Below are positions 18,001 to 21,000 of a stretch of 64,000 bases of DNA, in pieces. The position numbers were made by a program. Origin of the DNA: a virus (Duplodnaviria; Heunggongvirae; Uroviricota; Caudoviricetes); IMG/VR virus record IMGVR_UViG_2939521961_000006; one strand, 5' to 3'. Position 1 is the first letter of the stretch. Each line of letters starts with the position of its first letter.

Positions 18001-21000
18001 GTGTGTGGTGATTATTGTCCTGGCGGTTGGCTGTGGTGCGCTGTGGCTGGCAACAAACCATTACCGTGACAACGCGCTCACCTACAAAGCGCAGCGCGAT
18101 AAAAAAGCCAGAGAGCTGGAACAGGCGAATGCCACCATTACTGACATGCAGGTGCGCCAGCGTGATGTTGCTGCGCTCGATGCAAAATACTCGAGGGAGT
18201 TAGCCGATGCGAGAGCTGAAAATGAAACTCTGCGTGCTGATGTTGCCGCTGGTCGTAAGCGCCTGCGGATCAACGCCACCTGCTCCGGTACCGTGCGTGA
18301 AGCCACCGGCACCTCCGGCGTGGATAATGCAACCGGCCCCCGACTGGCAGACACCGCTGAACGGGATTATTTCATCCTCAGAGAACGGTTGATGACCATG
18401 CAGAAGCAGCTGGAAGGGGCACAGGACTATATCCGCACTCAGTGCCTGAACTAAGTTTTGCTGATGCGCCGTATCGTCGCCGTATTCCTGCATTAACAGA
18501 GACCGCAGCCCGACAGGGAGACTCCTCTGCGAGAGTGTGCGGGGATAATCAAAAACGATACACACCGGGGTTTACCGCGTAAACGGAGCGCGGCGTTCTC
18601 CCCTCATGGTCGCCCGTCCGGTGCGATGGTGGAAGAAACTGGAATCTGTTCAATAAAAAAACTGCCGTGTTGGAGTCACAGCAGTAATGTACTGATTGGG
18701 TAGAAGATTATTATTGTTATGCTTTATTTTTATTCTATATGGCTGATTATTTCAATTCGGAATTAATACAGCTAATGTCTGTGAGTTTTTATAAATTCAG
18801 CAATATAAAGAAATAGTTATATGAACAGCCATCGCAGAGCATACTGTGTATCATTCTTTTTTATAGTCAACTGACGGGCATATTTTATGTCTGCTGCCAG
18901 CTCCCGGCGGCAAGATTCAATGACCCACGCAGAAAAATTTTCTGAACCTTTCTGGTCAAGAGCGATGTTAATTTGTTCAATCATCTGGTTTGGAAATCGG
19001 ATGTTGCGGGTTGTTGTTCTGCGGGTCCGGTTTTTCGATGACATTTTCTTTCCTCTGGTGACAAGTTATATGGCGAGGATTTTACATGGCTGTGCTTCGT
19101 ACGTTACCGGGCAGAATCAAAACTCTGAACACCCGGCGGGTGAATGTCCTGAAGGGTGAACAGCGTCGGGTCAGTGGTAGTGCCCGGGTTTCCCTCAAGC
19201 GCCGTATCTGGCTCAGGGATGCCGGGCAGTGCTGTCTCTGTGGTCGTGTGGTTGACCTCTGTGACAGTGAACTCGATCACCGAATTGCACTTCAGTTCGG
19301 TGGTGGTAATGAGGAGACGAATCTCTGGACGCTCTGTACCGAATGCCATCGCCAGAAGTCAGTCAGTGAAACGGCGAGTGGTATGCCGGACCCGACGCTG
19401 CCGGAGGTGTCCGGAGGTCATGGCAGGGCAGACGATATCATCGGACTGTGACCCGCCCCGGGGGGGGATCATCCGGCGAAAAAAACGATCGCCCCGGACA
19501 CCGCCCCCCGTCTCATGCAGAGAAAAAATTCCTGTTTCAGGCCAGTTAACATGTTAACTGGCTGCCCGGGCATTTTTTCGGTTTTTATCTTTATTATTCA
19601 GTTTGTTGTGCGAAAAAAATGTTAACTGGCTTTTTCAGCAAATGTTAACCAGGCAGCAGTTAACATTTGCGGCATGAGACGCCGGGAAAAATGGGCTGAA
19701 CCATACCCGGCTGAGTGCGTTATGGACCCGGGAGGAGGCTGTGCTGACAACGCAAAAACGAAAATTTGCGCTGGCGCTCATGTCCGGGAAAAACAAAACA
19801 GCGTCAGCCATTGCCGCCGGTTATTCGGCGAAGACCGCCAGGGTTAAAGGCTCGCAGCTGGCAAAAGATCCGGAGGTGCTCGCGTTTATAGCCCGTAAAC
19901 AGTGCGAAACGGTGGAGGTGGATGAGGTTCCTGTTTACCGGCAGAAAAAATCAGAGCAGGAGGATAAACCCCGTCGCCGTGAGGTGGCTGCAATACCACA
20001 GCCGGACGAAAACAATCCGGAGATGCCACCGCCCGCGGTGATGTCTCATGGTATTGAATATATGGAGGATGGTCTTCCCGATCCGGTGAAAGCTATGGGG
20101 CAGATCCTGGTGGAAAACCTCAGCATTGATCCGAAACTGGCACTGGATGCGGCCTGGCGACTGGCGCAGTTCACACACCATAAAAAAGGCGATGCCGGTA
20201 AAAAATCGGCAAAAGGTGATGCCGCGAAAAAAGCGGCTAACCGTTTTGCGGTACCACCACCACCACGACTGGTGGTGAATAACGATAATGAGGGCAACGG
20301 ATGATACCTGTATGGAGCACGGCCTGCCCGGACTGGGCAGAGCGCCTGAAAAAGGGGCTGTCGATTATTCCGGCTCCGATTTATCCGGACCAGGCCGCAC
20401 ATGCCCTGGCGATTTTTAAACAACTGCGGATTGTGGATGCACCGGGTAGCCCGACGTTCGGGGAGTCCTGTGCACCGTGGGTGTTTGACCTGGTGGCGGC
20501 TCTGTTTGGCTCCTACGATGCGCAGACCGGTGTCCGCCATATCAAGGAAGTGTTCATTCTGATACCCAAAAAAAACAGCAAGTCCACACTGGCCGCCGGG
20601 ATCATGATGACGGCGCTGTTACTGAACTGGCGGCAGGCGGCGGGTTACACGATTCTGGCCCCGACTGTGGAGGTGGCAGCCAACGCCTTCAATCCTGCCA
20701 GGGATATGGTACGACGGGACGATGATCTGGATGACCTCTGTCAGGTGCAGACACATATCCGGACCATCACCCACCGGGTGACGGACACCACCCTGAAGGT
20801 GGTGGCAGCCGATCCGAATACGGTGTCCGGTATCAAGTCCGTGGGGACGCTGATTGATGAGTTGTGGCTGTTTGGCAAGCAGTACAAGGCGGAGGACATG
20901 TTACGTGAAGCCATCGGCGGGCTTGCCTCCCGCCCGGAAGGGTTTGTGGTGTATACGACCACCCAGTCGAATGAACCGCCAGCCGGGGTGTTCAGACAGA

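Follow-up and report, generated by a model that had tools for sequence, protein, structure and literature searches.

Positions 19460-19670 of a 64,000-nucleotide stretch of tailed-phage DNA (IMG/VR record IMGVR_UViG_2939521961_000006; Caudoviricetes), here called the window, are likely to form a cohesive-end (cos) packaging site, in which a nicking site (cosN) is followed by an array of five short sites read by the small terminase, TerS. The window is a Shiga toxin (Stx) 1a-converting lambdoid prophage of Escherichia coli, and the site would belong to a packaging module that is associated with an HNH endonuclease and produces 3′ overhangs. Over 19000-20400 the window matches Stx1a phages (LC744190, for example) and the chromosomes of strain E2865 and others with 100% identity, and over the shorter stretch 19500-19745 the O26:H11 strain 11368 as well. 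The site lies in a gap of 289 bp between the HNH gene, which stops at 19451, and terS, which starts at 19741.

A cut site is already published for a near-identical phage. Lys8385Vzw was induced from an O103:H11 strain and its virion DNA was sequenced; PhageTerm classed it as a cos phage with 3′ cohesive ends, and its cos was given as CGCCCCCCCT, at the genome end (PMC7946995; Zhang et al., 2021). Its record (MT225100) is ~96% identical to the window across the HNH-terS gap. The record ends in GGACACCGCCCCCCCT and starts with CTCACGCAGAGAAAAAATTCC, which together align base for base with window 19496-19532; over a longer stretch, the end GATCGCTCCGGACACCGCCCCCCCT and the start CTCACGCAGAGAAAAAATTCCCGTTTCAGGGCAGTTAACATGTTAACTGG align without gaps to window 19487-19560. 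The break in the record is homologous to window 19511/19512. By this homology to the PhageTerm termini, nicks are predicted at 19511/19512 on the top strand and at 19501/19502 on the bottom strand, which would leave a 10-nt 3′ cohesive end, CGCCCCCCGT, with 19512 as the first base of the packaged left end. The predicted overhang differs from that of Lys8385Vzw by a single base (G versus C at 19510). Among 80 close relatives from IMG/VR, which comprise 51 distinct upstream sequences, the overhang is CGCGCCCCCT in 60/80, CGCCCCCCGT in 15/80 and CGCCCCCCCT in 5/80.

A preliminary description of this DNA had proposed that the HNH-terS gap holds cos, and the Lys8385Vzw termini bear this out. The interval that it flagged as the cos or terminase recognition site (19509-19683) does fall in the cos region, but the predicted cut (19502-19511) lies at its left edge, the palindromes are 30-155 bp downstream and are not the cleavage site, and conservation of cos elements, with a G8 run and a CGATCGC box, reaches upstream to ~19460, outside the interval. 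Two other pointers to the ends were rejected. A sequence at 19449-19459 (TGACCCGCCCC), across the stop codon of HNH, is similar to the 10-nt cos of the Shigella phages SfI and SfV, TGCCCGCCCC (PMC3636060); positions 19455 and 19456 are variable in close relatives and the Lys8385Vzw termini map 50 bp further downstream, and the likeness is probably a coincidental GC-rich similarity. The linear record of vB_EcoS_phi330 is merely re-oriented, beginning at terL.

Downstream of the predicted cut, the octamer ATGTTAAC is present in five copies, all between cosN and terS, at 19545-52 (minus strand), 19551-58 (plus), 19619-26 (plus), 19642-49 (plus) and 19659-66 (minus), corresponding to offsets of +34, +40, +108, +131 and +148 from the cut. 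The whole window contains 8 copies, counting both strands, versus 1.75 expected from shuffles, and 5 of these 8 lie inside 122 bp. The first two copies stand head to head in a perfect 22-bp palindrome, the third (site c) is solitary, and the last two (sites d and e) form a second dyad (Table 1). In 80/80 close relatives the five octamers and an 18-bp palindrome core, CAGTTAACATGTTAACTG, are invariant, in contrast to adjacent bases; only 27/80 have the palindrome as a perfect 22-mer (19542 being C or G). The palindrome, the further motif copies and a 10-bp inverted repeat had all been located correctly in the preliminary description. The inverted repeat, which was thought to enclose the region, fails as a functional boundary: it is perfect in only 15/80 relatives and has 2 mismatches (CCTCTCACGC) in 60/80, its left arm is conserved cut-site sequence, and its right arm (19672-19681) is probably incidental. 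The AT-rich spacer between the palindrome and site c, with its T-tracts, is predicted to be intrinsically bent. No match to the consensus of integration host factor (IHF), WATCAANNNNTTR, with at most one mismatch is found in the gap (19452-19740), and the window-wide count is under chance expectation; a promoter scan returned one weak minus-strand match only (9/12).

The array recurs in diverged E. coli lineages, which were obtained via their TerS proteins, and its site positions are constant although the spacers have diverged. Lineage L173 shares both the half-site of the window, ATGTTAAC followed by TGGC, and its five offsets, of which the first and last are on the minus strand here and in the following lineages. 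The half-site is ATGTTAAC followed by CACC in L166 (+33, +39, +107, +131 and +158). In lineage L172, GTTAAC sites occur at +34, +40, +108, +132 and +159, the first three flanked by ACCC or AGCC, and L169/L170 has the half-site ATGTTTAT or ATGTTTAC at +34, +40, +108, +132 and +149. Equivalents of sites d and e (+131/132 and +148/149 or +158/159) are thereby present in every long-cos lineage, and also in a satellite, L177, described below. The positions of the T/A tracts are kept in five diverged lineages, with different sequence.

Sequence changes within the array are concerted. The ATGTTTAY variant occupies 5/5 sites of L169/L170 and the 3/3 sites contained in the truncated L171. In L166 and L172, each of which has one extra motif copy, the palindrome flanks are altered on both sides and the dyad is retained (in L166 as GGTG...CACC). 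The extended sequence of site c always matches the right half of the palindrome, and the extended half-site (ATGTTAAC plus 4-7 nt) shifts jointly in the two places, from TGGCT to CACCTTT in L166 and to ACCCTTT in L169 (ATGTTTATACCCTTT). Such joint change fits a repeated protein site of 12-15 bp better than a hairpin.

The most likely binder of the array is TerS. An AlphaFold2 model of TerS (22 homologues) has an N-terminal domain, residues 1-56, with a predicted local distance difference test score (pLDDT) above 93 and helices at 4-14, 19-25, 33-41 and 44-56; the C-terminal helices (115-145) have a pLDDT of ~79-86, the linker is disordered, and the full-length match to 3zqq is poor. The best Foldseek match of the N-terminal domain is the DNA-binding domain of SF6 G1P (4zc3), with a template modelling (TM) score of 0.84 on the target and a root-mean-square deviation of 1.6 Å. 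Further matches are 2cmp (TM 0.81-0.84 for 4zc3/2cmp) and the N-terminal domains of the PaP3 and NV1 TerS proteins, and weak sequence matches point to the same structure chains. The model thus predicts a helix-turn-helix domain of the SF6/SPP1 type, with the G1P fold, at the N-terminus of TerS. The earlier label of the module as HK97-like is apt for TerL, the HNH protein, the protease/capsid gene and the 3′ overhang, but not for TerS, which is a Terminase_2 protein of the SF6/SPP1 type.

The start of the predicted recognition helix varies with the motif. Residues 32/35 of TerS are T/V in all four GTTAAC lineages and S/C in both ATGTTTAY lineages (L169/L170 and L171), and the motif class of L171, predicted from the helix of P0035 before its DNA was examined, was confirmed. 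Neither of the other two proteins of the module follows motif class: the large terminase, TerL, of L169 is 96% identical to that of the window, and the HNH protein is 78-79% identical both in L169 and in the GTTAAC lineage L172. The link between TerS helix and motif class is suggestive.

Satellite islands provide further evidence. In E. coli Ec-042-T0, a ~10-kb island between yljB/cspD and clpS (L177/L178; NZ_CP086544.1 2992200-3001900) encodes an integrase, a helix-turn-helix regulator, an Icd-like gene, a RepA helicase and a protease-capsid fusion, and is devoid of terS, terL and HNH. One end of it (L177 1240-1480) has the G-run and cosN core, followed by a complete GTTAAC array with sites at +34, +40, +108, +132 and +149, in a cos stretch that is only 76.5% identical to the window. 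As the island has no terS downstream that the array could regulate, retention of the array there speaks for a packaging signal that acts in cis. The island presumably hijacks the terminase of an Stx-type helper.

Other islands in E. coli (L167 and L168, 1380-1500) and Salmonella (L174, 1400-1500) have a diverged Terminase_2 TerS of their own, a capsid-like gene and replication genes for a primase/helicase (D5_N, AAA_25) or SSB. All three keep the cosN core, with the overhang variant of the window, CGCCCCCCGT, in L167 and L168; in place of the array they have repeats of another type, AAGTTACAC, in two copies in L167 and L168 and in one copy in L174. These islands resemble satellites in which TerS and its recognition site are both private. 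A common cosN combined with private repeats and a private TerS is the pattern expected if TerL and HNH read cosN and TerS reads the repeats. Tentatively, the GTTAAC-type array may be viewed as a portable module of packaging specificity that evolves in step with the recognition helix of TerS, on a cosN common to different genera, and that satellites exploit either by copying the array of the helper without its terminase (L177/L178) or by a private TerS with private repeats (L167, L168 and L174). If this is true, cross-packaging of Stx prophages and islands in a multi-lysogen would be predictable from sequence.

Conservation of the cosN part extends well beyond E. coli. A search with a TerS alignment, limited to one genome per species, gave 19 full-length loci from Atlantibacter, Enterobacter, Kluyvera, Serratia, Phytobacter, Kosakonia, Citrobacter, Pantoea, Erwinia, Buttiauxella and other genera. 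An alignment of the cos region, satellites included, comprises 25 loci from at least 12 enterobacterial genera. Throughout these 25 loci the DNA of the cosN core is conserved despite divergence of TerS, which in the 19 loci is only 33-49% identical to that of the window. The conserved order is a G7-8 run at about -50, a GATCGC box, GGACACCGC-CCCCCT/CTCAYGCA-AGAAAAAAT, a Shine-Dalgarno sequence and GTAAAC-AT-GTTAAC. The G8 run may have a cosQ-like role in termination, or be contacted by TerL or HNH; for the A6 tract, a role like that of the HK97 A-tract is a speculation by analogy.

In short-cos phages, which include Salmonella phage FSL SP-016, terS starts as ATG TTA ACA, the right half of the GTAAAC-AT-GTTAAC dyad at +39/+40. 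FSL SP-016, a partial record, is the sole short-cos representative among linear phage records that begin in the gap; in this record, and in the majority of the 19 loci, terS starts exactly at +40, with ATGTTAACA. The window palindrome (+34/+40) is therefore the positional homologue of a dyad in which short-cos relatives have their terS start codon, and in the Stx-phage lineage ~190 extra bp, containing a further three motif copies, separate this ancestral dyad from the current terS start (GTG at +230). In the short-cos loci L086-L104 (~40 bp before and at the terS start) and in L003 (2585-2605), a rare TTA leucine codon is retained in almost all genera. This suggests that the first terS codons of short-cos relatives are under constraint at the DNA level, perhaps because a TerS site overlaps the translation start of terS itself. 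A separate observation concerns the PPompW prophages (L179 1046-2504; LC567822.1 and others), in which ISEc20, an insertion sequence of the IS110 family, adjoins the G8 run and homology restarts at the equivalent of window 19463. The lysis module and HNH (from the Q-tRNA region to cos) are gone from these prophages, the cos core and terS are retained, and they probably depend on HNH supplied in trans.

Several points weigh against a cos site with a TerS-read array in the window. The termini are taken from a close relative and derive from read-start statistics, not from direct sequencing of ends. Short-cos relatives and HK97 have just 40-50 bp between the cut and terS, so the extra sites are not universally required, and the TerS of HK97, which belongs to another family, binds a single site (+15 to +29) by a different mechanism. 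The link between helix and motif comprises six lineages and two motif classes, which differ mainly at octamer position 6; moreover, the helix-coding DNA is just 100-250 bp from the array, and co-inheritance could yield the same pattern. Satellites L167 and L174 have T32/V35 yet carry the motif AAGTTACAC, in which only GTTA-C is common, so there is no simple residue-to-base code. Finally, retention of dyad symmetry through two-sided changes is predicted by a hairpin or cruciform model as well.

The alternative that survives best accepts the region as cos and assigns the ATGTTAAC array to a reader other than TerS, namely TerL, HNH, a host nucleoid protein or a small phage DNA-binding protein such as the DUF3950 (YlcI/YnfO-family) protein; we consider it unlikely. 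The window and the GTTAAC lineages L172 and L173 have a DUF3950 gene adjoining HNH; the gene is missing from the ATGTTTAY lineage L169, and a gene annotated YlcI/YnfO is present in satellite L178. However, the satellite protein has no BLASTP similarity to the DUF3950 protein of the window, and short-cos lineages keep the +34/+40 dyad with no DUF3950 gene within 1.5 kb. Given its inconsistent distribution across lineages, with absence from L169 counting against it as well, DUF3950 is an unlikely binder. Divergence of TerL and HNH does not follow motif class, and the gap has no IHF consensus. Satellites with their own TerS that bring other repeats and keep cosN are expected if TerS is the reader.

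It is less probable still, and in our view improbable, that the palindromes act as nucleic-acid structures, whether as RNA hairpins, as a terminator or attenuator of terS in the late transcript, or as DNA cruciforms. Both dyads do form hairpins in the centroid RNA structure, alternative pairings between sites are possible, a weak terminator-like site (19566-19581) follows the first palindrome, and L166 and L172 maintain dyad symmetry by changes in both arms. Against this, the fold of the whole region is ordinary (z = -1.59, with 12/200 shuffles folding equally well), terminator-like matches are at chance (2 versus 1.1 expected), and the GC hairpin with its T-run is not conserved in L169. The extended half-site occurs without a partner in site c and in the additional copies of L166 and L172, and the array is retained in a satellite with no terS downstream. 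That the extra 190 bp (19559-19740) and their repeats are a functionless relic, a duplication of the 5′ end of ancestral terS, is very improbable: the short-cos start does occupy the place of the right half of the palindrome, and the terS start of the window, GTGCTGACAACG, with its own Shine-Dalgarno sequence, resembles ATGTTAACA, but the octamers are invariant among variable neighbours in 80 relatives, site positions are fixed across lineages with diverged spacers, all copies are altered together in one lineage, and the terminase-less satellite has kept the array.

If the array is a set of TerS sites within cos, packaging could proceed as follows. Terminase would cut cosN with a top-strand nick at 19511/19512, leaving the 10-nt 3′ overhang 19502-19511; TerL would do the cutting, probably with the neighbouring HNH protein as a helper, as in HK97. 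Oligomeric TerS, through its SF6/SPP1-type helix-turn-helix domains, would bind the +34/+40, +108 and +131/+148 sites, the first dyad being separated from the others by the presumably bent T-tract spacer. By wrapping or bending the DNA, TerS would position TerL and HNH on cosN, ~35 bp upstream, and packaging would go rightward into terS and terL.

The genes around the site are listed in Table 1. At the identical locus, the RefSeq order is Q, stxA1a/stxB1a, holin, lysozyme, Rz and a YlcI/YnfO-family gene on the opposite strand, and then HNH endonuclease, terS, terL, protease-capsid fusion, portal and tail genes. HNH homologues of 58-95% identity lie 5′ of cos in nearly all phage relatives, and distant ones (31-34%) in L091 and L099, and the satellites have no HNH gene; the protein is presumed to be an accessory nuclease for cos cleavage by analogy with HK97 gp74 (PMC11331095). 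TerL matches HK97 gp2 with 23% identity over ~490 amino acids (BLASTP, E = 2e-11).

Table 1. Elements of the predicted cos site and neighbouring genes in the window; offsets are counted from the predicted top-strand cut.
Feature	Position	Strand	Remarks
DUF3950 (YlcI/YnfO-family) gene, small, between Rz gene and HNH	18817-19044	-	Divergent orientation
HNH endonuclease gene, directly 5′ of cos	19086-19451	+	Pfam HNH PF01844, E = 2e-6; RefSeq 'HNH endonuclease'
G8 run, ~-52 to -45	19460-19467	+	Nearly invariant in the 25-locus alignment, satellites too
CGATCGCC box (contains GATC), ~-25 to -18	19487-19494	+	Moderately conserved in the 25-locus alignment
cosN core, GGACACCGCCCCCCGT/CTCATGCAGAGAAAAAATTCC	19496-19532	+	Top-conserved block of the 25-locus alignment: GGACACC, C-run, CTCA, AGAAAA
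Predicted 10-nt 3′ cohesive end, CGCCCCCCGT	19502-19511	+	By homology to the Lys8385Vzw cos
Outer 10-bp inverted repeat, CGTCTCATGC pairing with GCATGAGACG	19509-19518 and 19672-19681
A6 tract, +12 to +17	19523-19528	+	Nearly invariant, satellites too
Perfect 22-bp palindrome, GCCAGTTAACATGTTAACTGGC	19541-19562		Two head-to-head half-sites, ATGTTAAC TGGC, at +34 (-) and +40 (+)
AT-rich spacer	19563-19618	+	T-tracts at +62, +71 and +79, A7 tract at ~+102; tract positions kept in diverged lineages
Site c, ATGTTAACTGGC, +108	19619-19630	+	Extended sequence of 12-13 bp equal to palindrome right half
Second dyad, site d (ATGTTAAC, +131, 19642-49) and site e (+148, 19659-66, minus)	19638-19670		12-bp arms, 9-bp spacer
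terS, small terminase	19741-20304	+	Pfam Terminase_2 PF03592, E = 1e-8, residues 2-57
terL, large terminase (ATPase and nuclease)	20301-21962	+	Pfam PF03354 (TerL_ATPase), PF20441 (TerL_nuclease)
S78 protease/HK97-type capsid fusion	21943-23964		Pfam

Two observations concern the flanking genes. The DUF3950 protein resembles, by eye, a ribbon-helix-helix DNA binder, and its gene is found in some lineages with this packaging module and is missing from others. The portal region consists of two overlapping open reading frames, at 24176-25540 (454 amino acids) and 25537-26760 (407 amino acids), which RefSeq labels as a frameshifted pseudogene at the identical locus. Lys8385Vzw has the same split after the 454-amino-acid frame and forms virions; the split is therefore no evidence of a defective prophage, and may reflect a programmed frameshift or two genes.

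The cos region is widespread: ~1280 of 5426 complete E. coli genomes have it, commonly in more than one prophage and in up to 7-8 places per genome, and its carriers include Stx1 and Stx2 phages of O157, O26 and O111. The presence of several prophages of the same specificity in one strain favours cross-packaging. Knowledge of the exact cut and of the likely recognition array could be used to orient and delimit these phage genomes, to help predict which defective prophages or satellites of a cell share a terminase, and hence which Stx or virulence cargo is mobile, and to design cos-plasmid and transduction tools. Literature searches did not turn up any account of the array, of its variants between lineages or of its exploitation by satellites, and the published work on Lys8385Vzw names the 10-nt cos only; all three fit an established paradigm.

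Among known systems, the closest relatives are the long-tailed Stx phages BP-4795, 2851, 1717 and YYZ-2008 together with Lys8385Vzw, which share the same HNH-cos-terS-terL module and the five ATGTTAAC sites. Identity to the window is 95-100% across the gap for Lys8385Vzw and Stx phages, and 87.8-91.6% over 19380-19640 for YYZ-2008 and JLK-2012.

With HK97 the module has in common the order HNH, cos, terS, terL, a homologous TerL, an S78 protease with an HK97-type capsid, an A-tract soon after the cut and a 10-nt 3′ overhang, which is predicted here. The two differ in that terS starts at +50 in HK97 and at +230 here. In HK97, the target of TerS is a single 15-bp stretch (+15 to +29) that contains an A-tract, and the DNA is threaded through a channel of the protein (PMC11331095). 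TerS of the window has no sequence similarity to HK97 gp1 and belongs to a different family, and no repeat array was found at the HK97 left end; on these two grounds HK97 was set aside as a direct model of TerS binding.

SPP1/SF6 resembles the module in the DNA-binding fold of G1P (4zc3, TM 0.84), in the Pfam family of TerS and in having repeats in bent DNA: in SPP1, the targets of G1P are several short repeats on either side of the cut, where the DNA is intrinsically bent. These are, however, headful (pac) phages of Bacillus without an HNH partner, whereas precise cos cuts are predicted here.

The overall logic is closest to that of lambda, although the proteins are unrelated. In lambda, cos is composed of cosQ, cosN and cosB, with R3-I1-R2-R1 read by gpNu1, and phages 21 and N15 are built likewise. 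Here too a nicking site is followed, towards terS, by probable sites for the small terminase that are split by a presumed bend, so that the array takes the position of cosB; specificity appears to go with the N-terminal domain of TerS, and satellites exploit it. The differences lie in the components. The predicted overhang is 3′ and of 10 nt instead of 5′ and of 12 nt, there is an HNH partner, and TerS is a Terminase_2 protein with an SF6-like helix-turn-helix instead of Nu1. Conserved T-tracts may supply the bend in the place of IHF, whose consensus is lacking here, and the sites, of 8-13 bp, are arranged as two dyads and one solitary site. The module would be a second, independent example of the lambda-style division between cosN and cosB, assembled from an SF6-type TerS and an HK97-type TerL/HNH, a combination that could inform work on DNA recognition by terminases.

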